A DNA stretch of 64,000 bases from Flavobacterium sp. (GTDB lineage Bacteria > Bacteroidota > Bacteroidia > Flavobacteriales > Flavobacteriaceae), in the NCBI RefSeq assembly GCF_035292545.1, contig NZ_DATDPV010000009.1:24239-88238 (forward strand), in the 5' to 3' direction. The notes under the pieces were generated by a model that saw only the letters and a program-made list of their open reading frames with translations, did no database searches and was not told where the DNA came from. Shown in pieces: positions 47,572 to 64,000 of the stretch. The translations under genes and the position numbers were made by a program. The number at the start of each line of letters is the position of its first letter. Position 1 is the first letter of the stretch.

Positions 47572-47886
47572 ATGAGAAAAGCTATTGTTTATGTCCATAA
47601 TAATAGGGCTGGTGAATTGATAGAGGAAGAGTTGGGACACTATACTTTTAAATATGATCCCGACTATAATTTAGAACCTGTTTCTCTGACAATGCCTGTT
47701 CATCAAAAAGTGTATTCCTTTAATCATTTCCCACCTTTTTTTGAAGGATTATTGCCCGAAGGTATCATGCTGGAAGGACTTTTGAAAATCAATAAATTTG
47801 ATAAAAAAGATTATTTATCACAATTAATTGCAACTGGAAATGATTTGGTAGGTGCTGTAACTGTTAAAGCTGATAGTCATGAATAG
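47572..47886 (+). CDS. hipS: HipA N-terminal-domain protein, HipS-like antitoxin
   Basis: AGEL..., FKYD..Y, VSLTMP, PPFFEGLLPEG, DLVGAV. Confidence 0.85.
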   Translation: MRKAIVYVHNNRAGELIEEELGHYTFKYDPDYNLEPVSLTMPVHQKVYSFNHFPPFFEGLLPEGIMLEGLLKINKFDKKDYLSQLIATGNDLVGAVTVKADSHE

Positions 47887-48802
47887 ATGCCCTATATCCT
47901 ATGCACTTTGTGGTAATGATAAATACAGTATTGAAGGATTACGAATGCTATCCCCAAAACTAACTGCAATTCAGGATTTGCCATTTTCAGCATCAGAACA
48001 AAGACAAGAAGCTGCAAACAGAGCCAGTAAATTATCTATCCAAGGCGTTCAACCTAAATTGAGTGCTATTTTATCTATTGCAAACAATCAATTTGAAATT
48101 GTGGATCAGTTTGGAAATTATATTATCAAACCACAAAATGATTTATTTCCAGAATTGCCCGAAAATGAAGATGTAACAATGCGTATGGCAAAAGTGTATG
48201 GAATTGACGTTCCTCTTCATGGATTAATTTATTCTAAAGACAATTCTAAATCCTATTTCATCAAACGATTTGACCGACATGGAAAAGGCAAAAAATATGC
48301 TACAGAAGATTTTACACAATTGACAGGAAATTCAAGAGATACAAAATACAATTACAGCATGGAAAAAGTAGTCCAAGTTTTAGAGGATTACTGTACTTTT
48401 CCAGTCCTAGAAAAAGCTGAATTTTTCAAAAGGATTTTATTTTGTTTTGTGACTGGCAATGAAGACATGCATCTTAAAAATTTTTCATTGATTACAAAAT
48501 CTGGTAAAACAACATTAACTCCCGCTTATGATTTCCTAAATTCATCTATTGCAGTCAAAAATCCACAAGAAGAAATGGCATTAACGCTTAAAGGAAAGAA
48601 AAGCAATTTTAAGAATACCGACTTGATCGATTATTTTGCCAAAGAAAGATTGCAATTGAATGACAAGACAATTGATAAAATAGTAAACGACCTATTTAAA
48701 ACTGCTCCAAAATGGACGGAATTAATTGAGATCTCTTTTTTGTCTGCCACTATGAAAGAAAAGTATTTTAGCTTAATGAAAGAACGGTTGAGTAGATTTT
48801 AA
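47879..48802 (+). CDS. hipT: HipA C-terminal-domain Ser/Thr kinase, HipT-like toxin
   Basis: N-terminal CPIS motif, SIQGVQPK loop, RFDR, GNEDMHLKNFS, PAYD. Confidence 0.9.
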   Translation: MNRCPISYALCGNDKYSIEGLRMLSPKLTAIQDLPFSASEQRQEAANRASKLSIQGVQPKLSAILSIANNQFEIVDQFGNYIIKPQNDLFPELPENEDVTMRMAKVYGIDVPLHGLIYSKDNSKSYFIKRFDRHGKGKKYATEDFTQLTGNSRDTKYNYSMEKVVQVLEDYCTFPVLEKAEFFKRILFCFVTGNEDMHLKNFSLITKSGKTTLTPAYDFLNSSIAVKNPQEEMALTLKGKKSNFKNTDLIDYFAKERLQLNDKTIDKIVNDLFKTAPKWTELIEISFLSATMKEKYFSLMKERLSRF

Positions 48803-49426: not shown

Positions 49427-51955
49427 ATGAAAAATGAAGCTCATGCAAGAATCAAAATAAACCAACTACTTTCTGAAGCAGGATGGAGATTCTTTGATAA
49501 TGAGCTAGGAAGGGCTAATATTTTATTAGAAAATCATGTGAAAATCACCCAAACAGAAATAGATGCTTGGGGTAGTGACTTTGAAAAAACTAAGAGTGGT
49601 TCTCTCGATTTTCTACTTGTTGATACAAATAACAAACCCATTTGTGTTTTAGAAGCCAAAAAAGAGAGTTTACATCCATTAGTAGCTAAAGAACAGGCAA
49701 GAAAGTATGCAAATGCAGTGGATGCTCAATATATCATTTTATCGAATGGTATTGTTCATTATTTATGGGATTTAAAAAAGGGAAATCCCAAACCCATTTA
49801 TAAATACCCTTCTCCTACCGAAATTGGGGCTATTAAAGACTGGAATCCAGACAGAGTAGAATTAGCCAGTGAAGTTGTTAGTATTGATTATATTGCTTCA
49901 GTACAAATGCCAGACTATGCCGAAAGACCTAGTTGGAATGGGACAGTGGAGAGTAGTACTGATTTTATTTGGAACAATAAGCTTCGCTTTTTACGCTATT
50001 ATCAATTAAAGGCTGTTCAAAAATTGCAAGAAGCTGTTGCCAATGGTAAAGATCGATTTCTTTTTGAAATGGCTACTGGAACGGGTAAAACTCTAACAGC
50101 TGCTGCGGTTATCAAATTATTTTTACGTACCAAAAATGCGAAAAAAGTTTTATTTTTAGTTGATAGAATAGAATTAGAAGATCAAGCTTACAAAGATTTT
50201 ACCAATTATTTAAAGCCAGATTATACCACTTATATATACAAAGAACATAGAACTGATTGGCATAAAGCAGAAATTGTCGTTACTACTATTCAATCATTGC
50301 TTTTTAATAATAAGTATCGTGATTTGTTTACTCCTACTGATTTTGATTTATTAATTTCTGACGAATCGCATCGTTCTGTTTCTGGAAACTCGAGAGCAGT
50401 TTTTGAATATTTTAATGGCTATAAATTAGGATTAACGGCTACACCAAAAGATTATTTGAAAGGTGTAGATATTGATAAAATAAAAGAAAATGACCCGAGA
50501 GAAATTGAACGTAGAATGCTTCGGGATACTTACAATACTTTTGGGTGTGATAATGGTCAACCTACTTTTAGATATACTTTATTACAAGGGGTTAAAGATG
50601 ATTTTTTAAGAAACCCCATCACGATAGATGCTCGCACAGAAATTACTACACAATTACTTTCAGATCAGGGTTATGCCGTAATTAGGCAAACGGAAGAAGG
50701 TGAAGAATCGGAAATTTTTGTTTCAAGAGATTTTGAAAAAAAATTCTTTTCTGATAAAACTAATGCTATTTTTTGCAAAACATATTTAGAAAAAGCATTG
50801 CGTGATCCAATAACTAACGAAATAGGTAAAACAATCATTTTTGCGGTAAGCCAAAATCATGCAAGACGATTGACCGAAATTTTAAACGAATTTGCTGAGA
50901 AATTATTTCCAAATAAGTACAATTCCGATTTTGCAGTTCAAGTAACTTCACAGGTTACTGATGCACAACAAATGACCATTAATTTTTCTAATGATAATTT
51001 AAATGGAAAAACTAATTGGCTAGAAGGTTATAAATCAAGTAAAACTCGTATTTGCATAACAGTTGGAATGATGACAACAGGTTATGATTGTTCTGATTTA
51101 TTAAATATTTGTTTAATGCGTCCCGTTTTTAGTCCATCCGATTTTGTTCAGATTAAAGGTCGTGGCACCCGTAAACATACGTTTACCTTTAAATCTAAAA
51201 ACGAATTGAATGAAGAGGAAATAATACAAAAGGATAAGAAGAACTTTAAATTATTTGATTTTTTTGCCAACTGTGAATATTTTGAAGAGAAATTTGACTA
51301 TGATGAGGTTTTAATTCTACCAAAAACTGGGGAAGGTAAAACTGATAATTCTGGTGGAAATTCTAAAATAAAAAAATATACTAGTGAAATTATAGATCCT
51401 TTATTAGTAATGGAGGAGAAGGAAATAGGTCTTGATGGCATGAAGATTGACCGCATGCTTTATCGTGATTTTGAAAATAGAATTATAATGGACGACATTA
51501 TTAAAAAGAATGTTGAATTAGGTAATTGGGAACTAATAGTGAGTCATATTCAAAATGAAATTCTTGACAAACCCAATGAATATTTTAATATGGAAAAATT
51601 GCGGAAAGCTGCTAAAATAGATCGTAAAGTTTCCATACGTGAAATGGTAGAAAAAATATTTGGTATTATACCTAAATTCAAATCAAAAGACGAAATGCTT
51701 GATGAAGAATTTGATAAATTCATTTCTATCTATCCCCCGGAAGAAGATGTAAATATTAGAGCATTACAATATTTCTTCAAAGCTTACATTGTTGACCAAG
51801 ATATTAGGAAAATAATTGAAACTAAAGATTTTCAAGCCTTACAAACTAATCCTACTTTAACAATAACTCAATTTAAAGAAGTAGCAGCTAAATACAGAGA
51901 AGTAATTCCAGTATATATTAAAGATTATATTAAACTAGAGAATTTTGCAGCATAA
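49427..51955 (+). CDS. hsdR: Type I restriction endonuclease subunit R (EcoEI-like)
   Basis: D..L...EAKK nuclease motif, MATGTGKT, DESH, LTATP, MMTTGYD, QIKGRGTR. Confidence 0.92.
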   Translation: MKNEAHARIKINQLLSEAGWRFFDNELGRANILLENHVKITQTEIDAWGSDFEKTKSGSLDFLLVDTNNKPICVLEAKKESLHPLVAKEQARKYANAVDAQYIILSNGIVHYLWDLKKGNPKPIYKYPSPTEIGAIKDWNPDRVELASEVVSIDYIASVQMPDYAERPSWNGTVESSTDFIWNNKLRFLRYYQLKAVQKLQEAVANGKDRFLFEMATGTGKTLTAAAVIKLFLRTKNAKKVLFLVDRIELEDQAYKDFTNYLKPDYTTYIYKEHRTDWHKAEIVVTTIQSLLFNNKYRDLFTPTDFDLLISDESHRSVSGNSRAVFEYFNGYKLGLTATPKDYLKGVDIDKIKENDPREIERRMLRDTYNTFGCDNGQPTFRYTLLQGVKDDFLRNPITIDARTEITTQLLSDQGYAVIRQTEEGEESEIFVSRDFEKKFFSDKTNAIFCKTYLEKALRDPITNEIGKTIIFAVSQNHARRLTEILNEFAEKLFPNKYNSDFAVQVTSQVTDAQQMTINFSNDNLNGKTNWLEGYKSSKTRICITVGMMTTGYDCSDLLNICLMRPVFSPSDFVQIKGRGTRKHTFTFKSKNELNEEEIIQKDKKNFKLFDFFANCEYFEEKFDYDEVLILPKTGEGKTDNSGGNSKIKKYTSEIIDPLLVMEEKEIGLDGMKIDRMLYRDFENRIIMDDIIKKNVELGNWELIVSHIQNEILDKPNEYFNMEKLRKAAKIDRKVSIREMVEKIFGIIPKFKSKDEMLDEEFDKFISIYPPEEDVNIRALQYFFKAYIVDQDIRKIIETKDFQALQTNPTLTITQFKEVAAKYREVIPVYIKDYIKLENFAA

Positions 51956-51992: not shown

Positions 51993-54515
51993 ATGTTAGA
52001 TAACATAACAAAAAGAAGAATTGATGATTGCCGTGATATTTTGGTTGGAAAATTACCTGACCCAAAATCACAAATAGAACAAATAACCATTGCGCTGATT
52101 TATAAATTCATGGATGACATGGATAAAGAAGCGATTGAACTAGGTGGAAAGGCAAAATTCTTTTCAGATTATACAATTCCTGATCCAAATGATATTAAAA
52201 AACAAATTGTTATTCCTTTTGAAAAATACAGTTGGGACAATCTATTTGATAGCAAAGTAAGTGCTACCGAAATGCTTAAACTGTATTCGGAAGCGATTGA
52301 AGGAATGGTAAAAAACCCTAATATTCCTGAACTGTTTGCTAATATTTTTAAGAATGCCTATTTACCTTATCGTGACCCCGAAACTTTGAAAATGTTTCTT
52401 AAAACGATAAGTGAATTTGAATATACGCACAGTGAAAAACTAGGGGATGCCTTTGAATATTTACTTTCTGTAATGGGTTCGCAAGGTGATGCTGGACAGT
52501 TTAGAACACCGCGACACATTATTGATTTTTTGGTTGCAGCCGTAAACCCAAGTAAAACTGACACTATTCTTGACCCAGCCTGTGGTACCGCTGGATTTTT
52601 GATTTCTGCCTTTAAACACATTAAAGAACAAAACAATAATATCTTAACTCCAGACGAACGTAAAAAGTTAATTAAGAATTTTATCGGGTATGATATTTCG
52701 CCCGATATGGTGCGATTAAGTTTGGTCAATCTGTATTTACACGGCTTTTCTGACCCACATGTTTTTGAATATGATACATTAAGCAGTGAAGACCGTTGGG
52801 ACGAAACCTTTGATGTGGTGTTAGCAAACCCGCCATTTATGAGTCCAAAAGGAGGTATACGACCACACAAAAAATTTACCATAAGCAGCAATCGTAGCGA
52901 AGTATTGTTTGTAGATTATATAGCTGAACATTTAAACCCAAAAGGAAGAGCTGGTATTATTGTACCCGAAGGGATAATTTTTCAAAGTGGCACGGCCTAT
53001 AAAGCCTTGCGAAAAATGTTAGTGGACAAATACTTGTATGCCGTGGTGAGTTTGCCCGCAGGTGTTTTTAATCCTTATAGCGGTGTAAAAACATCAATTT
53101 TATTGATGGATGCTGATTTAGCTAAGAAAACGGATGATGTTTTATTTATAAAAATTGATAATGACGGTTATAATCTTGGAGCACAACGCAATTCCGTAAA
53201 AGGAGGACAATTAGAGGACGCAGTTGAAACTTTAAAAACGTTTAGACAAAATAGTGTTGAAGGAAAGTTATTTGAAAATACGTTTTTAGCTCAAGCTGTA
53301 AATAAAGCTGAAATTGGAAAAAGTGGTGATTATAATTTGACTGGTGAAAAGTATAAAGTCAATACAATTTTAAACTCAAATTATGAATTTGAATTATTAT
53401 CCAATGTCTGTGAAATAAATCCTGAAACTATTGATCCTGCCAATCTTAATACTGAAGAGTTTGTTTATATTGATATAGCATCAGTTGAAAATGGTACGGG
53501 TAGAATAAATTATGATAATATCGTAAAAAAAGAAAATGCACCATCTAGAGCTAGAAGAAAAGTTCGAGATAAAGATATAATTCTTTCGACTGTAAGACCA
53601 AATTTAAAAGCCTTTGGTTTTATTGAAAATCCTCCTGAGAATACAATTTCATCAACTGGCTTTGCAGTTCTTAGGCCAAAAAAAAATCTAAATTCGAAGT
53701 TCCTATTTTATAATTTATATACTGATAACATGGTATCTCAAATGGTTTCCATGATGGGCAAAGGCTCTTATCCGAGTATTAATCAGTCAGATGTTTCTTC
53801 GCTTAAAATACCGCTTCCACCTCTTTCTATTCAAGAAGAAATTGTTGCTGAAATTGAGAGCTATCAAAAAATAATTGATGGAGGTAAAATGGTGGTAGAT
53901 AATTACAAACCCAGAATTGAGATTGATAAGGATTGGGAGATGTTAGCGTTTGAAGACATTTGCTTAGTCAATCCTAAAAAATCGGAAATAAATACTCTTG
54001 ATGACGATACTCAAGTTTCGTTTGTGCCAATGGCAGATTTGAATGAGAATCAAATCGATTTTATTCCTAATCAAGTAAAACCCTTAAGCGAAGTATACAA
54101 AGGTTATACTTATTTTAAGGAAAATGATGTATTACTTGCTAAAGTAACACCCTGTTTTGAAAATGGAAAAGCTGGTATAGCTAAAAAATTGGTCAACGGA
54201 ATTGGTTTTGGTTCAAGTGAATATTATGTGTTTAGACCAAACGAAAAAATTCTTTCAACTTGGATATACTTAAATATTATTACAGTTAATTTTAGAGAAA
54301 GAGGAAAACTTAACATGACTGGGACTGGTGGTTTACAACGAGTACCCACGGATTATGTTAAATCATATCAAATTCCAGTTCCTCCAATAGAAACCCAACA
54401 ACAAATCGTTTCCCAAATTGAAAAAGAGCAGGCATTGGTCAATGCTAATAAAGAGTTGATTACAATTTATGAGCAAAAGATAAAGGATAGAATTGGTAAA
54501 GTCTGGGGAGAGTAA
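51993..54515 (+). CDS. hsdM: Fused type I methyltransferase-specificity protein (HsdM plus two TRDs)
   Basis: GQFRTPRH, DPACGTAGFL, NPPF; then two Methylase_S-like units ending IPLPPLSIQEEIV and IPVPPIETQQQIV. Confidence 0.92.
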   Translation: MLDNITKRRIDDCRDILVGKLPDPKSQIEQITIALIYKFMDDMDKEAIELGGKAKFFSDYTIPDPNDIKKQIVIPFEKYSWDNLFDSKVSATEMLKLYSEAIEGMVKNPNIPELFANIFKNAYLPYRDPETLKMFLKTISEFEYTHSEKLGDAFEYLLSVMGSQGDAGQFRTPRHIIDFLVAAVNPSKTDTILDPACGTAGFLISAFKHIKEQNNNILTPDERKKLIKNFIGYDISPDMVRLSLVNLYLHGFSDPHVFEYDTLSSEDRWDETFDVVLANPPFMSPKGGIRPHKKFTISSNRSEVLFVDYIAEHLNPKGRAGIIVPEGIIFQSGTAYKALRKMLVDKYLYAVVSLPAGVFNPYSGVKTSILLMDADLAKKTDDVLFIKIDNDGYNLGAQRNSVKGGQLEDAVETLKTFRQNSVEGKLFENTFLAQAVNKAEIGKSGDYNLTGEKYKVNTILNSNYEFELLSNVCEINPETIDPANLNTEEFVYIDIASVENGTGRINYDNIVKKENAPSRARRKVRDKDIILSTVRPNLKAFGFIENPPENTISSTGFAVLRPKKNLNSKFLFYNLYTDNMVSQMVSMMGKGSYPSINQSDVSSLKIPLPPLSIQEEIVAEIESYQKIIDGGKMVVDNYKPRIEIDKDWEMLAFEDICLVNPKKSEINTLDDDTQVSFVPMADLNENQIDFIPNQVKPLSEVYKGYTYFKENDVLLAKVTPCFENGKAGIAKKLVNGIGFGSSEYYVFRPNEKILSTWIYLNIITVNFRERGKLNMTGTGGLQRVPTDYVKSYQIPVPPIETQQQIVSQIEKEQALVNANKELITIYEQKIKDRIGKVWGE

Positions 54516-54516
54516 T

Positions 54517-55365
54517 ATGAGAGCATTACAAGAAATAGTAAACAGACATAATAAAGTCGCCTTTTTGATTGGTAACGGACCCAACTTGGCTGCTAAAATA
54601 ATGCCGTCATGGAAGGATTTATTAAAGTCTGCATCCGATAGACCTATTCGATTTGAAGTTGATGGACTTTCTAATACAGAAGTTTATGATTTGGTAGAAA
54701 TATATTCAACCGAACCTAAAGAGGTTAAAAACCATGTTAAAAGTAAACTAGAATTACTACCAACTTATAATATTAGTATTCATAGGAGGTTGATGGAGTT
54801 TGCAATTGCTAATGATTCCCCTGTCTTATCTACAAATTTTGATGAAGTATTTGAGAAATCTATAAATGCAGAATTATTTCATATAGAATCAAAAGGATTT
54901 GCACGTTTTTATCCATGGAAAACGTATTACGGATTAACACAACATATTCTACCTACTGATGGTTTTGGAATTTGGAAAGTTCACGGAGATGTTCGTTATA
55001 CGGATAGTATTCGACTTGGCCTAACCGATTACATGGGAAGTTCCGAAAGAGCAAGGAAATTAATTCATAATGGAGAAGATAGATTGTTTAATGGCAAGCG
55101 TCAAGAGTTATGGTCAGGTCATCAAACTTGGCTTCATATATGGTTCAATTTACCTATTGTTATTTTTGGTTTAACTTATGGTTTAGACGAAGTCTTTTTA
55201 CGTTGGCTTTTAATAGAAAGAAAACGGTATTTAAATATATATAGTAGCCCCATGAATGTATATTATGTTTACAAAGACACACCTGCACCTTCAGTTAGCA
55301 ATCTTATGCGAAATTTAGATGTTGAACTAGTTAGTATTAATGATTATTCTGAACTATACGGATAA
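54517..55365 (+). CDS. SIR2-family (SIR2_2-like) protein, putative NADase
   Basis: FLIGNG, W..LL, STNFD, KVHGD motifs; ATG 1 nt after the hsdMS stop. Confidence 0.8.
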   Translation: MRALQEIVNRHNKVAFLIGNGPNLAAKIMPSWKDLLKSASDRPIRFEVDGLSNTEVYDLVEIYSTEPKEVKNHVKSKLELLPTYNISIHRRLMEFAIANDSPVLSTNFDEVFEKSINAELFHIESKGFARFYPWKTYYGLTQHILPTDGFGIWKVHGDVRYTDSIRLGLTDYMGSSERARKLIHNGEDRLFNGKRQELWSGHQTWLHIWFNLPIVIFGLTYGLDEVFLRWLLIERKRYLNIYSSPMNVYYVYKDTPAPSVSNLMRNLDVELVSINDYSELYG

Positions 55366-56096
55366 TGGAAGAAGCAACTTATATATTCAATTATTTACCT
55401 GTTCGTTTTAAAGATACAAATGAGCAAGAGTATATTGAATACTTGTGGAGTTCGTTTGAAGGTAATTATGATAATGAAAAATATCAATTTGCTTTTATGG
55501 CTTATCACATGCTATTTATGAGTTTTGTGTATTTTAATATATGGCAAGTAAAATCAGTAAAAGAAGAAGATTTTAATAAAATCAAACTTGGCTTCAGTGA
55601 TAAATTAGATAAAGTTACTAATCCATTTATGTTTAGTACAGAAGGAGAAAGTCGAATTTTTGACCTTCTTAAATATTTGTGCGCATCTCATTCAGATGTA
55701 AATGCTCTAGTTGGGAGATATAAGAGTCTTGTAAAAGATCGAAATGAAATTGCTCATGCCAATGGATTAATACCTTTTAGAACTACTACATATCTTGAAA
55801 CTAAGATTAATGATATATTACGATATGCAGAAGAAATTCAGTCATTTTCAAAACCCATTATTCATGAGTGTTTTGAAAAGTTTTTAATTGAAAGTCAGGA
55901 TGAAGATGCAAGACAATATTACGATATTGTTGAACAAATTAATGAAAGTTTAATACATCAACATTATTTATCGCAAAAGGATATTAATTTTTGTTTAGAG
56001 TATGATCTACAAAAGTTAAATGGACAACCAAATTTCGCGGAAATCGAAAGGATTTATGATTCATTGAAAAGTGAGTATCAAATTGAGGTGAGTTAA
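55365..56096 (+). CDS. HEPN-like protein
   Basis: All-helical character; R126-x4-H131 (DRNEIAH); TAATG stop/start overlap with the SIR2 gene. Confidence 0.6.
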   Translation: MEEATYIFNYLPVRFKDTNEQEYIEYLWSSFEGNYDNEKYQFAFMAYHMLFMSFVYFNIWQVKSVKEEDFNKIKLGFSDKLDKVTNPFMFSTEGESRIFDLLKYLCASHSDVNALVGRYKSLVKDRNEIAHANGLIPFRTTTYLETKINDILRYAEEIQSFSKPIIHECFEKFLIESQDEDARQYYDIVEQINESLIHQHYLSQKDINFCLEYDLQKLNGQPNFAEIERIYDSLKSEYQIEVS

Positions 56097-56103
56097 ATAC
56101 ATA

Positions 56104-57135
56104 ATGGTCATTTATATGAAGCAAAAACCAGAAATAGTTAGAACTAAAAATGAAGCTACCGGAATGAGGGTAGTTTCTCAATATGTCACTGAGTTTTGGG
56201 AATGTGGTTGGCAGCCAATCGAACAAAGAAATGACAAAGGCATTGATGGTCTTATAATAATGCGAAAAGGCGGAAAAGATATTGGTGTTAATATTAATGT
56301 CCAGGTTAAATGTGGAGTTCATTATATATCAAGCTATAATAAAGATGAAATTAAAATTTCGATTAGCAATAAATTAAACGAGCATATAACATATTGGAAG
56401 ACACAATTAATTCCAACCATTTTAGTTTTTGTAATACCTTATATTCCAAAACGTGATAAACATGGTAACATTGTTAGAATAGAAGTAATTACTGATAGTG
56501 GCAATGTTAGAAAAGAAATTGATTGGAAAGAAAGTAGAATTAAAGCAGAAGCTTTTTGGGTGAATGTTAAAGATGTAAACGTTTTTGACATAGATAAAAA
56601 AACTATAATAAAGATTGATAAGAAAAATAGATTTGGGGAACATTCAAAAGGAGATTTTTTAAAACTAATTGAACCTTATAAAACTAATATATATATTGAT
56701 AGGATTAATTTAAATCTGGTTAACAGAAATCTTTTAAACTCAGATAATTTCAGAAAGGATGCCCGTCAATTTTATAAAGACTGGAAATTAATTGACAACA
56801 ATTATTTCCCTTGCAAAGCCTTAGGAGGTGAGAAAATAATTATTTCAAGAACTGGATGGAATCATATAACAAATAAATCAAGAGGAAGAGAAAGAAGAAA
56901 TATTTCTTTAAAATTATTAGGTGCAGCTAAACAGGTAATCGAAGAAGTTGAAAAATATTATCTTTTACAACAAGTGCCAAATGGAGAATATCTAGAACAA
57001 AAAATAGGAATAAGAGGTATTGTAAAAACTAAAAATGAAGGAGACAAAATTATTCAAGTAGTAATCTTAAGAAAATATAATGAAAGTAAAGATTACGATA
57101 AATATTGGTTTTATTCAGTTCATCACAGGCAATAG
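56104..57135 (+). CDS. DUF4365 (PD-(D/E)xK nuclease) protein with an extra C-terminal domain
   Basis: WQPIEQRNDKGIDGLI..NVQVK; C-terminal ISRTGWNHI...FYSV segment. Confidence 0.75.
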   Translation: MVIYMKQKPEIVRTKNEATGMRVVSQYVTEFWECGWQPIEQRNDKGIDGLIIMRKGGKDIGVNINVQVKCGVHYISSYNKDEIKISISNKLNEHITYWKTQLIPTILVFVIPYIPKRDKHGNIVRIEVITDSGNVRKEIDWKESRIKAEAFWVNVKDVNVFDIDKKTIIKIDKKNRFGEHSKGDFLKLIEPYKTNIYIDRINLNLVNRNLLNSDNFRKDARQFYKDWKLIDNNYFPCKALGGEKIIISRTGWNHITNKSRGRERRNISLKLLGAAKQVIEEVEKYYLLQQVPNGEYLEQKIGIRGIVKTKNEGDKIIQVVILRKYNESKDYDKYWFYSVHHRQ

Positions 57136-57277: not shown

Positions 57278-58399
57278 ATGAAAGTAATCCAAAATAAATG
57301 GTTAGATAATTTTTTAAAAGAATTAGCGACTACTAAAGAGTTAAAAATAGTATCTCCATTTATTACGGATAACATGGTAACACATTTATTAGATAATTGG
57401 AAAGGAAACAAGATACAGGTTATAACAAGATATAATTTAAATGATTTTCGCTCAGGAGTATCAAGCCTTAAAGCATTAAGAAGATTAATTGAAAAAGATG
57501 TGGAAATAAAAGGCATAAAAGATTTACACAGTAAAGCCTATATTTTCGATGCAAATAGTATGATTATTACTTCAGCAAATTTTACCAATGGTGGTTTTTT
57601 TAATAATCACGAATTAGGGATTAAGAGTGAAAGCGAAGTGCAAATTAAAGAGACGTTAGATTATTTTAACAAATTGTGGTCATTTAATAATGATTTATTA
57701 GAGACTAATAAAATTAATGAATGGCAAAAAATCATTGCAGAAAATAGAATAACTACAGCAGGAGCCAACTTAAAAGATTTTGGAACTTCAATTATTAGAA
57801 AAGTAATTGGAGACAAAAATTACTTTATAAAATTTTATGGAAGAGGTAATGAAAGAGCAAATTGGAATGAAGATGTTGTAGATATTATTAATGGTACTCA
57901 TTGTCATTTTGCAATAACTTTTCCTGAAGGAATTGGAAGACCTACAAGGTATAACGAAGGAGATGTTGTCTATTTAGCTAGAATGATTGAAGACCAAGAA
58001 TATGCAATATTTGGAAAAGCAATAGCTAGAAAACATGACAGAATTAGAGATATAGCAAGTAATGAAGATAAAAAACATATTGAATGGAAAGAAGAATTTC
58101 CAATTTATATTAGAGTACATTCTGTTAAATTTTTAAACACAACTTTTAAAAATTGCCCAAAAATGGGTGTTTTAATGAATGAATTGGGTTATGAATGTTT
58201 CAAAAAGACCAAAGAAAGACACGATAATGGAGAGGAAAACATAAATCCAAGATTATCTTTAATGAGAAAACCTGATATATGGTTAAGTGAAGAAGGAGCT
58301 TTTTGGGTCGAACAAAGATTTAATGAAGCTAAAAAGAAATTTTCACTCGTTCCACAAACTTTTATTGACGGTTTGTATCAAGGTAATCCTAAAATTTAG
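57278..58399 (+). CDS. Phospholipase D-family nuclease with C-terminal domain
   Basis: IVSPF, HSKAYIFD (HxKx4D), TSANFT, N.ELG. Confidence 0.85.
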   Translation: MKVIQNKWLDNFLKELATTKELKIVSPFITDNMVTHLLDNWKGNKIQVITRYNLNDFRSGVSSLKALRRLIEKDVEIKGIKDLHSKAYIFDANSMIITSANFTNGGFFNNHELGIKSESEVQIKETLDYFNKLWSFNNDLLETNKINEWQKIIAENRITTAGANLKDFGTSIIRKVIGDKNYFIKFYGRGNERANWNEDVVDIINGTHCHFAITFPEGIGRPTRYNEGDVVYLARMIEDQEYAIFGKAIARKHDRIRDIASNEDKKHIEWKEEFPIYIRVHSVKFLNTTFKNCPKMGVLMNELGYECFKKTKERHDNGEENINPRLSLMRKPDIWLSEEGAFWVEQRFNEAKKKFSLVPQTFIDGLYQGNPKI

Positions 58400-58579: not shown

Positions 58580-60712
58580 ATGCATATATCAAAAGTTACA
58601 TTAGTTAACTACAGGAATTTTGCAAATGTAAAATTTAATTTTAAGAAAGGAATAAATACAATTATTGGTGAAAATGGTTCTGGAAAAACAAATCTTTTTA
58701 AAGCGATAAGATTACTATTAGATGATAGTTTATATTCGGCAGCTTATAAGTTAACTTCTGATGATTTTAACCGTGCCTTAGGTGACTGGAGGGGGCAATG
58801 GATAATAATAAGTATCGAATTTGATGAAATTTCAGCAGATGAAGCAATTCAGGCACTTTTTGTTCATGGAGCAGCAATTATTGAAAGTGAATATGTAAAA
58901 AGGGCAACCTACAATCTGTTTTTTAGACCAAAAGCAGATATCCGATTAAAACTATCACAGTTAGAAGAAGGAGACAATAGAGGCTTACAAAGTATACTTG
59001 ATGAAATTAATATTAAAGATGATTATGAGACAATTTTCACAGGTAAAAGTATTGCAGATTTCAGCGACCCTGACGTTTATAATGATTTAGTAGGCAATTT
59101 TGATGAAGTTAAATTTAATTTCAATATTGATACATCTAAATATGGAATTAGAGTTCCTAATCAGTTATCAGTGGCAAAGGAAATATCTTTCACTTTTATT
59201 CAGGCATTACGTGACGTTGTTAACGATTTTCATGACAACAGAACAAATCCTCTTCTTGCATTATTAAAACATAAAAGTGGAGAAATTGATGAAGCTGAGT
59301 TTGCTCCAATTAGTAAATTAGTAAAAGAAATAAATGAAGGGATAGAAACGCTTAAAGATGTGCAAACTATACGAAAAGATATTAAGCAGACTATTAGAGA
59401 TGCAGTTGGAGAAACTTATTCTCCTTCTTCCTTATCGATCAGATCTAATTTGCCTAAGGAGGCCGATAAACTTCTTCAATCATTAAAATTATTTATCGGA
59501 GAGCCAGATGAAGATTATGAAGGAAGTATACATGAATTAAGTTTAGGAGGTGCTAACTTAATATTTCTAACCCTAAAATTACTAGAGTATAAATACCAAA
59601 AATCTAAATCAACATTTGCAAATTTTTTAATAATCGAAGAACCGGAAGCACACATTCATACACACATACAAAAAACACTTTTTGACAAGCTCGATTATAG
59701 TGATACTCAAATAATTTACTCAACTCATTCAACGTATATTTCTGAAGTTAGTGATGTTTCTAGTATAAATATCCTTGCTAAAAAAAGGAATTATGCAGAA
59801 GTATATCAACCTTCTGTTGGTTTAGACTCAAAAAAAATAACTCAAATCCAAAGATATTTGGACTCTGTTAGAAGTAATCTTCTATTCGCAAAAGGCGTAA
59901 TTTTGGTAGAAGGAGATGCCGAAGAAATACTAATTCCCTCATTGGTAAAAAAAGCTCTTGGTCTTAGTTTAGATGAATTAGGAATAAGTTTAATAAATAT
60001 TGGGAGTACAGGATTCGAAAATGTTGCTCAGCTATTTCATAAAGATCGTATTAGAAGAAAATGCAGTATCATTACAGATCTTGACAGCGAAATTGTAGAT
60101 ACATCTACGGTGATTGGCGACACTGAAAGAACTAAATTATTTAAGAGTAAAGTTCGCAATTCTGCAATATCGGGAGCAAGAAGAAAAGTAGCACTTGATA
60201 ATTTTGTCGACGGAAATGAATTTCTTCAAGTTTTTTATGCACAGCACACATTTGAAGTTGATTTTGTTAAAGAAGGTAATGCTTGGGAAGTGAAGCAATT
60301 AATAAAGACTGTATATAAAGCTCCTCCGAAAAGGATTCAGGCAAAAGATGACCTAAATTCAAATGATGTAGCACTTTACGGAAAAAGAGTTTTAACAATG
60401 GCAAATCAGGAAAAAAAAGGATGGTTTGCAATTATGCTTGGTAAATATGTAACCTATAAAACCATAATACCTCAATATATACTCAAAGCGATTATTTTTG
60501 CGAAACCAACGTTTTCAAGAAGCCTGATTATTGATATAATTGAATATCGATTAAATCAAAACTTAATGGATAATTTGACACTTGATTTAGCCGAGATTCA
60601 ACTATCAATTTTGGATTACGAAAAGAATAAAATTGGAACAGATGAACTAATAGGATTAATTGAAAAAGTTATTCCCGACGATCAAATTGTAGAATTTCTT
60701 AAATCGTTATAA
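58580..60712 (+). CDS. gajA: OLD-family ATP-dependent nuclease (Gabija A)
   Basis: NYRNF, GENGSGKT, IEEPEAHIH, STHS, TOPRIM LVEGDAE and ITDLD; adjacent to a UvrD helicase. Confidence 0.88.
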   Translation: MHISKVTLVNYRNFANVKFNFKKGINTIIGENGSGKTNLFKAIRLLLDDSLYSAAYKLTSDDFNRALGDWRGQWIIISIEFDEISADEAIQALFVHGAAIIESEYVKRATYNLFFRPKADIRLKLSQLEEGDNRGLQSILDEINIKDDYETIFTGKSIADFSDPDVYNDLVGNFDEVKFNFNIDTSKYGIRVPNQLSVAKEISFTFIQALRDVVNDFHDNRTNPLLALLKHKSGEIDEAEFAPISKLVKEINEGIETLKDVQTIRKDIKQTIRDAVGETYSPSSLSIRSNLPKEADKLLQSLKLFIGEPDEDYEGSIHELSLGGANLIFLTLKLLEYKYQKSKSTFANFLIIEEPEAHIHTHIQKTLFDKLDYSDTQIIYSTHSTYISEVSDVSSINILAKKRNYAEVYQPSVGLDSKKITQIQRYLDSVRSNLLFAKGVILVEGDAEEILIPSLVKKALGLSLDELGISLINIGSTGFENVAQLFHKDRIRRKCSIITDLDSEIVDTSTVIGDTERTKLFKSKVRNSAISGARRKVALDNFVDGNEFLQVFYAQHTFEVDFVKEGNAWEVKQLIKTVYKAPPKRIQAKDDLNSNDVALYGKRVLTMANQEKKGWFAIMLGKYVTYKTIIPQYILKAIIFAKPTFSRSLIIDIIEYRLNQNLMDNLTLDLAEIQLSILDYEKNKIGTDELIGLIEKVIPDDQIVEFLKSL

Positions 60713-60714
60713 AT

Positions 60715-62508
60715 ATGTTTATTTGGAATCAAGGGGACTTAAATAGCGAACAAGAATCTGCTATTCATGAAGATGGAAGCATTCTATTAATTGCATGTCC
60801 TGGCAGTGGAAAAACTAGAACATTAACTTATAAAATTGCTTACGAACTTTCAAAGTTACAATCAGGAAAAGAATTTGTCATTGCTATTACATATACAAAT
60901 GCTGCGGCAGATGAAATTAAAGAGCGTGTAGAACTCCTTGGAGTAGATATTTCCCAACTATGGATTGGTACAATACATTCATTTTGCACAGAATGGATTT
61001 TAAGGCCTTATTCCCTTTATATTGAAGAACTTAAGCATGGATTTAAAATTTTAAATTCTCATGATTCAGAAGAAATTTTAAATACCCTTTGTTCTAAATC
61101 TGACAACCCTAAAATAAATTACTACGATTGTCAATTTTTTGCTACTATTAATAAGTACAAAATAACCTCTCTCGAAGAACATAAATATTCTTCAATAAGA
61201 TCAGTATTGTATGAATATTTTGAAATTCTTAAACAAAATAAGCAAATAGATTATGAGCAAATACTTCATTATTCTTATAAAATTTTAAAAAACAACCCCA
61301 TAATTTGTTCAATACTTTCCAAAATTTTCCCTTACATTTTAATCGATGAATATCAGGATACAAAAGAAATTCAATATCATATTATATTTTCAATAATAAA
61401 AACGGGTGTGGGACATACAAAATTATTTATTGTTGGTGACCCAAACCAATCAATTTATGATACTCTTGGCGGGTATCCCATGCCAAAATCTGAAATGGAA
61501 GAAATTATAAATATCTATTTGGTTGAAAAACATTTAGAGAGTAATTATCGTTCATCTTCAAAAATTATTGGATATTTTGATTATTTTAAAACGTATCCTA
61601 ATAGAATAAATCCTGCTGGTAATTCCGCTAACTATAATAGTATGATAACTTTTAATCGAATTATAAATCATTCGATATTAGAAGATGAAATTGTTAGATT
61701 GATACTGGACAGTATAAAAAATAAAGGAATTCAGCCAAATGAAATTTGTATTGCAGCTCCCCAATGGATTCCTTTAGCAAGTCTAACAAGGAAGTTAATG
61801 GTAAGATTACCAGATTATAGTTTTGATGGACCTGGTATGGCTCCCTTTTCTAGAGACATTGATAATTTTTGGTTTAAATTATCCAGAATAGTTTTGACTG
61901 AACCATCACCTAACTTATACATAAGAAGAATTCGATGGGCAAAAGAAGTATTGACTGAATTAACTTTTGTTGGAGCTACTATCGATGAGATTTTGCCTAA
62001 GGATCTTTTAAGAATATGTAATTCTATTATAATTGAGGAAGAGGATGGATTAAAATATCTTAAACAAATATTTGATGGAATATTAAATCAATTGAAAATC
62101 AATATTTCAGTTTTTCCTTCATTAATTGAACACTATCAATCATTTTTTAGTAGTTCAGAAGCAAGAATTGCAAGATTACAGAAAGAAGGAAATGAATTCA
62201 TTGGATCTATTGAAAATTTTAAAAAAGTTTTCAAACAACGAGAAGGAATTAAAATATCAACAATTCATGGAGTAAAAGGAACTGAATATGACGTTATAAT
62301 TGGGTTTGGATTATTACAAAATTGGGTTCCTCATTTTAATGATTCCAATGGTGTAATCAATTCAAAGAAAATGCTTTATGTTTTAGCTTCTAGGGCGCGG
62401 AAACATTTGCATATCATTTCTGAAAGTGGAAGAAACATAAACAGGTATAATCCTCGTGGGTTGCAACCAACCTCTCATTTGGTAAAATATATATACGAAT
62501 ACGACTAA
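60715..62508 (+). CDS. gajB: UvrD-family helicase (Gabija B)
   Basis: ACPGSGKT, TYTNAAA, TIHSF, DEYQD, VGDPNQSIY, NYRS, STIHGVKG.E, YVLASRA. Confidence 0.88.
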   Translation: MFIWNQGDLNSEQESAIHEDGSILLIACPGSGKTRTLTYKIAYELSKLQSGKEFVIAITYTNAAADEIKERVELLGVDISQLWIGTIHSFCTEWILRPYSLYIEELKHGFKILNSHDSEEILNTLCSKSDNPKINYYDCQFFATINKYKITSLEEHKYSSIRSVLYEYFEILKQNKQIDYEQILHYSYKILKNNPIICSILSKIFPYILIDEYQDTKEIQYHIIFSIIKTGVGHTKLFIVGDPNQSIYDTLGGYPMPKSEMEEIINIYLVEKHLESNYRSSSKIIGYFDYFKTYPNRINPAGNSANYNSMITFNRIINHSILEDEIVRLILDSIKNKGIQPNEICIAAPQWIPLASLTRKLMVRLPDYSFDGPGMAPFSRDIDNFWFKLSRIVLTEPSPNLYIRRIRWAKEVLTELTFVGATIDEILPKDLLRICNSIIIEEEDGLKYLKQIFDGILNQLKINISVFPSLIEHYQSFFSSSEARIARLQKEGNEFIGSIENFKKVFKQREGIKISTIHGVKGTEYDVIIGFGLLQNWVPHFNDSNGVINSKKMLYVLASRARKHLHIISESGRNINRYNPRGLQPTSHLVKYIYEYD

Positions 62509-62521
62509 AAAAAACAAAAAA

Positions 62522-63427
62522 ATGTCAAAATCAAAATCACAACAAATAGCAGAAAAAACCATTTTTGCAACCTTTAAAATATTGAAAGAGGCGGGGGGAG
62601 AAATGCGTGGTAAAGATGTCGTAGATAAAATTAGAGAAACTATCACTTTTGATGAATATGAAAGTCACCGCTATGAAAAAACTGGTTACATTAGATGGGA
62701 ATCAATATTGCATTTTTATACTATTGACTGTATGAAAGCTGGCTTTTTACGAAAAAACAAAGGTACTTGGATACTTACAGAAGAAGGCGAAAAAGCCATA
62801 AAACTAGGACAAGAAAAATTACTGGTAACAGCTACAAAACTTTATCGTGAATGGGATGGTAAAAGAAAAAAAGGAGCTATTGAAGAGGGTATTCTTGAGG
62901 AAGATATTACAGAAGTTAACACGAGTCAAGCACAAAAAGCAATATTAAGCCAATACGAGGAAGAAGCCTATAATGGAATTAGAAATTTCATTGTCAGTAA
63001 AAACCCTTATGAATTTCAAGATTTAGTGGCGGGATTATTAATAGCAATGGGCTACTATATTTCTGAAATAGCACAACGTGGCCCAGACGGAGGAATTGAC
63101 ATTATAGCTTTTACAGATCCTTTGGGAACTAAACAGCCTCGTATCATAGTGCAAGTTAAACATAGACCTAATGATAATGTTTCCTCCGATGAAGTGCAAA
63201 AATTAGCTGGAACGTTAAAAAGAAATACTGATGTTGGAATTTTTGTTACTTCTGGTACCTTTTCAAAACCTGCAATAAAAGAAGCCAGAGAATCGAGAGA
63301 GCATATCGAATTGATTGACTTCAATCGATTGACTTCTTTATGGCAAGAGTACTATGTCAAAATGAACGATGAACAAAAAAATCTATTACCCTTACACCCA
63401 ATCTACTTTTTAGGAAGTAATGAATAA
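62522..63427 (+). CDS. mrr: Mrr-family type IV restriction endonuclease
   Basis: Winged-helix Mrr_N (W.LTEEG); PYEFQDLVA, DGGIDII..IVQVK, FVTSGTFS. Confidence 0.9.
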   Translation: MSKSKSQQIAEKTIFATFKILKEAGGEMRGKDVVDKIRETITFDEYESHRYEKTGYIRWESILHFYTIDCMKAGFLRKNKGTWILTEEGEKAIKLGQEKLLVTATKLYREWDGKRKKGAIEEGILEEDITEVNTSQAQKAILSQYEEEAYNGIRNFIVSKNPYEFQDLVAGLLIAMGYYISEIAQRGPDGGIDIIAFTDPLGTKQPRIIVQVKHRPNDNVSSDEVQKLAGTLKRNTDVGIFVTSGTFSKPAIKEARESREHIELIDFNRLTSLWQEYYVKMNDEQKNLLPLHPIYFLGSNE

Positions 63428-63436
63428 ACTATTGAC

Positions 63437-64000
63437 ATGCCGAAATTTTTAAATACTAAAGGTCTAATAAACTGGATCCCAAAAATAATAAACGAAACAG
63501 TTAGCGAATTAGTGATAATAACGCCTTATATGCAATTATCTGACAATATCTATAATTGTCTTTTCAATGCAAATAAACGTGGTGTAGAAACCATAATTAT
63601 ATATCGGGAGAACAAATTAACTGATAAAGACAAGACAAAATTATTAGCTCTTGATAATTTAAACTTAATGCACCATCCAAACGTTCATGCAAAATGCTAC
63701 TATAATGAGAATTATTTACTTATTGCATCAATGAACCTTTATGAATATTCTGAAAAGAACAATCGTGAAATGGGTGTTTTATTGCACAAAATTGATATTG
63801 ATGAAGATAACGAAATAGAATCATGGAGAAAACGAAATGATGATGATTCAATATTTGCTGAGGCATTAGAAGAAATCCTTGAAATAAAAAATGGTGCGGA
63901 ACTCGAAAAAATGAGTAGAGAAACCATCGAGGAAGGTTTTGAAATGGAAATTCTAAAAACTAAAAAAGAAAAAGCCGAGGACAGATTAAAGCAATTCAAT
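63437..64000 (+). CDS. PLD-like domain protein (partial, runs off the window; absent from the ORF track)
   Basis: Frame open from ATG 63437 to the window end: IITPY, HAKCYYNE, SMNLYEYS..NNREMGVL. Confidence 0.8.
   Translation, partial: MPKFLNTKGLINWIPKIINETVSELVIITPYMQLSDNIYNCLFNANKRGVETIIIYRENKLTDKDKTKLLALDNLNLMHHPNVHAKCYYNENYLLIASMNLYEYSEKNNREMGVLLHKIDIDEDNEIESWRKRNDDDSIFAEALEEILEIKNGAELEKMSRETIEEGFEMEILKTKKEKAEDRLKQFN

Follow-up and report, generated by a model that had tools for sequence, protein, structure and literature searches.

The subject of this analysis is an operon in a 64,000-nucleotide (nt) stretch of Flavobacterium DNA (NCBI RefSeq assembly GCF_035292545.1, contig NZ_DATDPV010000009.1, positions 24,239 to 88,238 of the forward strand; hereafter the window, with all window positions counted from its first letter), in which the genes of a type I restriction-modification (RM) enzyme are followed by a gene for a SIR2-family protein of 282 amino acids (aa) and a gene for a HEPN-like protein of 243 aa. 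The HEPN-like gene is the conserved last gene of one family of operons consisting of an hsdR gene (842 aa) and a fused hsdMS gene, and the slot between hsdMS and the HEPN-like gene is a variable effector slot, of which SIR2 is one optional occupant. At a rough probability of 0.55, our favored interpretation is that of a layered defence operon, in which restriction would act first and RM-linked abortive effectors would act afterwards, as with PrrC. The elements on which the argument depends are the following:

49427..51955, + strand: hsdR, 842 aa (Pfam ResIII, 136 bits, and HSDR_N_2; PADLOC REase_I)
51993..54515, + strand: hsdMS fusion, 840 aa (Pfam N6_Mtase, 184 bits, and two Methylase_S matches; PADLOC MTase_I and Specificity_I)
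54513..54519, + strand: junction of hsdMS and SIR2, with TAA at 54513-54515, T54516 as the sole spacer and ATG at 54517
54517..55365, + strand: SIR2-family protein, 282 aa (AlphaFold and Foldseek; Pfam SIR2_2 below its cut-off)
55363..55367, + strand: TAATG stop/start overlap of the SIR2 and HEPN-like genes, read directly from the sequence
55365..56096, + strand: HEPN-like protein, 243 aa, all-alpha (Pfam HEPN_RiboL-PSP below its cut-off; Rx4H motif)
55740..55757, + strand: R126-N-E-I-A-H131 (RNEIAH), the Rx4H motif of the 243-aa protein

The linkage of the HEPN-like gene to this operon family was established by a metagenome scan with an alignment of the HEPN-like proteins, in which 506 candidate stretches were confirmed and 80 loci kept; the upstream context was counted in the 38 HEPN loci with at least 3 kb of upstream sequence. 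The same hsdM(S) family lies upstream on the same strand in 38 of these 38 loci, usually preceded by the 842-aa hsdR. The HEPN-like gene directly adjoins hsdMS in 27 of the 38, SIR2 stands between them in 3, and other cargo does so in 8, namely ABC-3C genes (loci L089 and L092), DUF4917, AAA_13 (RloC-like) ATPases, DUF429 and an AbiH-like protein. Where SIR2 is absent, the junction reads ...KVWGE-TAATG-GAAGAA (MEEA...), the hsdMS C-terminus ...KVWGE being conserved. Overlaps of the form TAATG or TGATG recur in the relatives, either directly from hsdMS to the HEPN-like gene or on both sides of SIR2, and because they recur across related loci, these stop/start overlaps are not a matter of chance. 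Among about 400 Bacteroidota genomes, about 24 have a member of the hsdR family (at least 49% identity) and 7 have the HEPN-like gene, in two cases as a degenerate copy. In operons that lack the HEPN-like gene, the terminal gene is DUF6602, DUF3644 together with the EC042_2821 restriction endonuclease (itself a HEPN family), DUF4917, or nothing. The hsdR-hsdMS-HEPN trio is also present on the plasmid pPZ02 of the alphaproteobacterium Paracoccus zhejiangensis, and when 1.84 billion cluster representatives were searched with the HEPN-like profile, 921 clusters (at 50% identity) matched.

The enzyme itself is apparently intact, judging from its domains: HsdR, HsdM and an HsdS with two target-recognition domains, the components of a type I RM system, are all present. 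In hsdR, an N-terminal PD-(D/E)xK nuclease (DFLLVD...LEAKK) and a DESH helicase can be read, and hsdMS combines an N6-adenine methylase (NPPF) and two target-recognition domains in one protein. An earlier note, made from the letters of the window, had described a translationally coupled pair of SIR2 and HEPN-like genes embedded in a type I RM operon. Its reading of the gene boundaries, with a single nucleotide between the hsdMS stop and the SIR2 start and a TAATG overlap between SIR2 and the next gene, agrees with the positions given above, as does its placing of the RNEIAH motif, which spans residues 126-131 of the 243 aa. The pair is indeed linked to the operon; it is appended 3' of hsdR-hsdMS, and not embedded between the hsd genes.

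Several observations concern the end of the operon in relatives. The trio on pPZ02, a mobilizable plasmid, adjoins Tn7-like genes (TniQ, TniB and a Mu-type transposase; L154:2868-8738) and a convergent DUF6602 gene. DUF6602 proteins of 229-242 aa replace the HEPN-like protein as the product of the operon's last gene in L133:5411-6100, L138:7252-7956, L139:7307-8035, L149:5967-6695 and L001:6928-7638, and their frame overlaps the end of hsdMS in L138, L139 and L149; DUF6602 has been called a distant relative of the RmuC nuclease (bioRxiv 10.1101/2024.07.02.601686). Furthermore, large AAA_13 ATPases of the PrrC/RloC type are encoded directly 5' of the HEPN-like gene in L093:5388-7997, L112:3320-5620 and L143:5311-7920, and such loci look like a split version of the PrrC architecture, in which an ABC ATPase and a HEPN domain are joined.

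The distribution of SIR2 is of a different kind. Scanning a SIR2 alignment against 185,579 species genomes yielded 52 loci, mostly from Bacteroidota; Proteobacteria and other phyla contribute distant members. The HEPN-like family is found next to SIR2 in only five of them, directly downstream in L002, L004 and L012, two genes further on in L013, and upstream in L023 of Balneola, where the order hsdMS-HEPN-SIR2 is the reverse of that in the window; the HEPN-like protein encoded there (L023:6934-7977) has 347 aa, including a Cys-rich, zinc-ribbon-like C-terminal extension. From the side of the HEPN-like gene, 9 of 60 loci have SIR2 and 51 do not. The same hsdM(S) family lies just 5' of SIR2 in ten loci besides the window, and the gene 3' of SIR2 varies, being DUF6602 (L001, L009, L024), DUF5655 (L008, L013) or nothing related. 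Distant SIR2 relatives occur in other settings: in L047 and L052 their codons overlap or abut those of the type III genes mod and res, between which they lie, and elsewhere they follow a type IIG enzyme (L043), other type I hsdR genes (L046, L049) or recD (L041). Further members of the family adjoin SIR2-HerA, HerA-like, PLD or unrelated genes. The type III-associated relatives (L047:7452-8582 and L052:6223-7365) have 376-380 aa, with an extra N-terminal region.

SIR2 presence was also mapped on a tree of 60 HEPN-like proteins with two main clades. All nine SIR2-bearing loci fall into one main clade, where they make up 9 of 29 rows, and their distribution implies eight state changes, at least five of them forced by well-supported branches. 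Moreover, L063 and L002 encode SIR2 proteins that are 92% identical and HEPN-like proteins that are only 60% identical; the SIR2 cassette has therefore been exchanged between operons and was not co-inherited with the HEPN-like gene. By these sequence comparisons, SIR2 is an optional cassette that moves horizontally. The earlier note's proposal of a two-effector module does not hold in the sense of a fixed pair: all 38 HEPN loci with at least 3 kb of upstream sequence have hsdMS upstream, SIR2 and the HEPN-like gene seldom occur together (5/52 and 9/60), and the cassette has moved.

The AlphaFold model of the 282-aa protein, built with a 43-sequence alignment, confirms a SIR2 fold with a catalytic Asn/His pair. 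The model is a confident single domain (mean predicted local distance difference test score, pLDDT, 92.8), and Foldseek alignments cover the whole chain, in line with the bare, sensor-less domain that had been read from the sequence. Compared with the PDB, it gives 63 matches at E <= 1e-3, and the top neighbours are all defence sirtuins, namely KomC (E 2.6e-9), DSR2, ThsA, AVAST5, SPARSA and SIR2-HerA; the best structural matches have E values of 1e-9 to 1e-5 and template modelling (TM) scores of about 0.6, at a sequence identity of only 11-18%. The motifs comprise a first loop G19-N-G-x-N23 (GNGxN), T106-N107-F-D109 and H156-G157. Among the 43 SIR2-family sequences N107 is invariant and T106-N107-F-D109 is conserved throughout; close relatives conserve N107, D109 and H156, and the window's clade retains H156-G157. 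In many distant relatives, W-H-I-N-G stands where the window protein has W-K-V-H-G, with Asn at the place of the usual catalytic His. The Pfam model SIR2_2 reaches 23.4 bits against a cut-off of 24.5, thus missing its gathering score, and a PF13289 match is precomputed for most close homologues. PADLOC v2 gave no match for SIR2, and the Pfam models AbiH and DUF4917 gave none at E <= 0.01; likewise, hhalign of the SIR2 profile was insignificant against an AbiH-like protein and against a DUF4917 protein, with motif-level resemblance only in the latter case. The protein is probably an effector that destroys nicotinamide adenine dinucleotide (NAD).

Of the two domain assignments in the earlier note, that of SIR2 is thus carried by fold and catalytic residues, and that of HEPN is supported by sequence only, since Foldseek gave no significant match. 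HEPN is nonetheless the best-supported call for the 243-aa protein, which is predicted to be, probably, an RNase. Across 35 sequences R126 and H131 do not vary and N127 hardly does, and the pattern R[ND]xxxHxxG is present in 60 of 60 loci; the motif has the Rx4-6H form with a polar residue after the R. HEPN_RiboL-PSP matches 22 of 35 relatives (best E 1.5e-6) and HEPN_MAE_28990 matches 4, and PADLOC gives one weak match, to a Csx20 CARF-HEPN model (E 1.3e-4). The AlphaFold model is confident and all-alpha (pLDDT 93, predicted TM score 0.90). A hydrophobic stretch at residues 40-65 was considered as a membrane helix and, by inference, rejected, as it forms one helix within this confident model. 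The HEPN protein 2q00_B appears among the Foldseek matches at a probability of only 0.44, and hhalign showed no significant similarity between the HEPN profile and a DUF3644 protein. The Pfam scan detected no ATPase domain in the protein, and no minimal nucleotidyltransferase antitoxin, as in HEPN-MNT systems, flanks its gene. NCBIfam has no match for this protein or for SIR2, searching the PDB with the two sequences and with the HEPN profile returned nothing useful, and RefSeq annotates the family (in the Paracoccus plasmid copy) as 'hypothetical protein'.

Apart from SIR2 itself, further NAD-destroying modules recur with the HEPN-like protein. In the other, SIR2-free HEPN clade (clade B), DUF4917, which has been described as sirtuin-like (PMC10421069), lies directly 5' of the HEPN-like gene in L091, L095, L106, L122 and L129, and a SIR2-superfamily gene stands just before the HEPN-like gene in 14 of 60 loci altogether. 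In addition, two HEPN-like proteins among the matches in the 921 clusters, P0314 and P0325, carry a C-terminal TIR domain; P0314 keeps RNDICH, and in P0325 the motif has become RNQWLK, without its His. The HEPN-TIR fusion genes (L157:7330-8946 and L158:4312-5682) lie immediately after the hsdMS of the same operon type. A search for further fusions with P0314 as the query returned only ordinary TIR proteins, and such fusions are therefore rare. The use of the slot by DUF4917 and the TIR fusion leave some support for a real link between the HEPN-like protein and NAD-degrading enzymes (NADases). Together with the 14 of 60 loci, they are the chief evidence that the pairing seen in the earlier note has some substance, as a facultative combination.

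The mechanism that we propose for the layered operon follows the logic of PrrC and EcoPrrI, in which the restriction enzyme is proposed to silence an RNase for as long as no phage blocks restriction (PMC3710099, PMC3632139). As a latent RNase, the HEPN-like protein would be restrained by the restriction complex or docked onto it; once that complex is blocked or overwhelmed, the RNase would fire and translation would stop. SIR2 would come second, as an optional abortive effector that depletes NAD+. Furthermore, because SIR2, DUF4917 and TIR in cis recur with the HEPN-like module, the HEPN-like protein may also be a partner that couples NADase effectors to the restriction enzyme. In a stronger form, which we regard as unlikely, the HEPN-like protein would be a docking or sensing module on the type I enzyme that licenses interchangeable NAD+-destroying effectors when restriction is blocked, with SIR2 or DUF4917 acting in trans and TIR in cis; type III and type IIG enzymes would be served by the SIR2 family as well. 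If this is true, the restriction complex would carry a modular guard platform in the form of the HEPN-like protein.

A number of observations weigh against the layered operon. Most hsdR-hsdMS operons lack the HEPN-like gene, which is therefore dispensable for restriction, and linkage alone would look the same under functional coupling, shared transcription or a hotspot of insertion. The evidence for the RNase has gaps as well: on the window protein, HEPN_RiboL-PSP scores 23.2 bits against a cut-off of 28.4 (E 7e-5), Foldseek of the model against the PDB and BFVD returned nothing significant (best E > 1), and the protein is without an ATPase regulator of the PrrC kind. SIR2 may work alone, being found beside unrelated genes (L029, L036, L152) and in islands without nearby restriction genes. 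Finally, when RNA evidence of co-transcription was sought, the sequence was found in DNA metagenome runs only.

In a competing account, the 3' end of the operon would be a hotspot of insertion and expression, and SIR2 and the HEPN-like gene would be independent single-gene abortive-infection systems that have hitched a ride on the operon's transcription, without any functional tie to the restriction enzyme or to each other. The cargo of the slot is diverse and unrelated (ABC-3C, AAA_13 ATPases, DUF429, DUF3800 and DUF4917), SIR2 also turns up in defence islands elsewhere and next to unrelated genes, its cassette moves horizontally, and AbiH is a known single-gene abortive-infection system of the sirtuin-like kind (PMC13064643). 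Such an account is plausible for SIR2, although even there the relatives wedged with overlapping codons between type III mod and res speak against it. It is less plausible for the HEPN-like gene because of the strict fidelity of this gene to one hsdR-hsdMS family, away from which it was never found in the 38 loci and to whose hsdMS it is normally joined by a stop/start overlap; free-standing defence genes are not usually so faithful to one neighbour. For the operon as a whole we consider independent passengers rather unlikely, if still the more serious of the competing accounts.

At the opposite extreme, SIR2 and the HEPN-like protein could form an obligate two-gene system whose proteins need each other and which is a defence system in its own right. 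Translational coupling in the window, L002, L004, L012, L055, L056, L063 and L075, the adjacency of the two genes in reversed order in L023 and the recurrence of NADase modules with the HEPN-like module all speak for such a pair. It is nevertheless largely refuted by the co-occurrence counts, in which 47 of 52 SIR2 loci are without the HEPN-like gene and 51 of 60 HEPN loci without SIR2; moreover, DUF6602 replaces the HEPN-like gene after SIR2 in L001, L009 and L024, and the phylogenies of the two proteins disagree, all of which makes an obligate pair very improbable. Slightly less remote, though still improbable, is that the 243-aa protein is not a toxin, and instead a non-catalytic accessory protein or regulator of the restriction complex (helping, for instance, to assemble it or to alleviate restriction) or a protein that regulates the operon by binding RNA. 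The missing structural match to solved HEPN RNases, the loss of the motif His in the TIR-fused relative P0325 (RNQWLK) and the absence of an antitoxin-like gene would agree with this; the occurrence of R-N-x3-H-x2-G in 60 of 60 loci, the fact that the sole family-level matches are HEPN models and the ability of most hsdR-hsdMS operons to work without the gene do not. The layered operon thus remains the account that we favor, and the idea of an RM-guarding back-up, which the earlier note had also raised, appears to fit the HEPN-like gene well because that gene is always linked to one hsdR-hsdMS family.

Among described systems, PrrC of the type Ic enzyme EcoPrrI comes closest, as a HEPN-type nuclease gene that is tightly linked to type I hsd genes. 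PrrC, however, carries an N-terminal ABC ATPase and its gene lies between the hsd genes, whereas the window protein has 243 aa, no ATPase, and is encoded by the last gene; compared with the PrrC/RloC anticodon nucleases in general, the fused ABC ATPase is lacking and the linkage to hsd genes is present (38/38, at the 3' end). At least 16 HEPN clades are linked to RM systems, and a PrrC-like second line of defence has been proposed for them (Anantharaman et al. 2013, PMC3710099). These clades include RiboL-PSP, MAE_28990, DUF3644/EC042_2821, AbiU2 and others, and the best Pfam matches of the window family are HEPN_RiboL-PSP and HEPN_MAE_28990; in the same survey, RiboL-PSP-HEPN is fused to L-PSP or found in operons with ParB, and not with type I hsdR-hsdMS genes. 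Variable extra genes in RM operons have also been noted earlier (PMC3632139). In Ronin and EcoR22I, restriction-type loci trigger cell death in response to anti-restriction proteins, as has been determined experimentally (bioRxiv 10.1101/2023.04.06.535777). The idea of cell-death effectors built onto restriction-type proteins is shared with Ronin (RonA with HsdMS) and EcoR22I, but RonA is a membrane peptide of 61 aa and Ronin has no hsdR, whereas the window has an apparently complete restriction enzyme and effectors that are enzyme domains.

With regard to SIR2, the one-gene abortive-infection system AbiH (PMC13064643) and DUF4917 are single-domain sirtuin-like proteins like that of the window, and DUF4917 fills the same slot before the HEPN-like gene elsewhere; they differ in that the window SIR2 matches neither Pfam model. 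KomC of the Kongming system, with about 264 aa, is a bare SIR2 too, and the Asn/His catalytic pair is common to the window protein, KomC, DSR2, ThsA, SIR2-HerA and SPARSA. The Pfam and PADLOC (v2) scans, which covered nine genes between 49427 and 63427, revealed none of the partners of Thoeris, DSR, SIR2-HerA, short pAgo or Kongming systems (KomA/KomB, SLOG, TIR, HerA, Argonaute or a large sensor), in agreement with the earlier note, which had seen no TIR, HerA or pAgo partner. Membership in Kongming, suggested by KomC as the top fold match, was rejected, as no KomA or KomB is present. The operon matches no named system, and it is not a categorically new two-effector system either. PADLOC v2 has no model for SIR2, and the idea of an RM-linked HEPN effector has already been published (PMC3710099). 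On the whole, the observation in the earlier note is confirmed and its interpretation is supported in part.

The co-directional block read in the window extends from hsdR, hsdMS and the reading frames of 282 and 243 aa to one further gene:

56104..57135, + strand: DUF4365 protein with a weak LPD3 match (Pfam DUF4365, 66.5 bits), starting 7 nt past the HEPN-like gene

This gene and the PLD gene beyond it were considered as members of the unit and rejected, being common only to the closest relatives, L055 and L056. A scan for sigma-70 promoters and terminators showed no terminator-like site on the + strand from the hsdR start to 58154, and was uninformative. The surroundings form a defence island, in which the scan of the window genes shows a HipA-like pair, the type I system, DUF4365/LPD3, a DrmC-like PLD protein, Gabija, Mrr and a second PLD protein. 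The HipA-like kinase, just 5' of the hsd operon at 47572-48802, is split into a gene for the N-terminal domain (104 aa) and a gene of 307 aa. The first PLD protein (373 aa, 57278-58399) matches the PADLOC DrmC model over its full length with 191 bits, and is the sole DISARM match among the nine genes scanned. The region 58580-64000 holds a complete Gabija pair (GajA, 1023 bits; GajB, 825 bits), then an Mrr-type restriction protein and, after it, the second PLD protein, which is cut off by the end of the window.

Detailed knowledge of how restriction hands over to abortive infection, once phages disarm the restriction enzyme, is limited to very few cases, above all PrrC, Ronin and EcoR22I. The operon family described here is widespread, with 921 HEPN-like clusters and members in Bacteroidota and on a Paracoccus plasmid. 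It also includes a sensor-less SIR2 family that PADLOC v2 misses; since this family recurs in type I and type III operons and beside a type IIG enzyme, it is a candidate restriction-associated NADase. On the same restriction enzyme, nature provides a set of variants, with no add-on, with the HEPN-like gene alone, with SIR2 or DUF4917 together with it, and with a HEPN-TIR fusion, and the comparison of these variants is a direct route to learning whether and how an RNase and a NADase are wired to the restriction complex.

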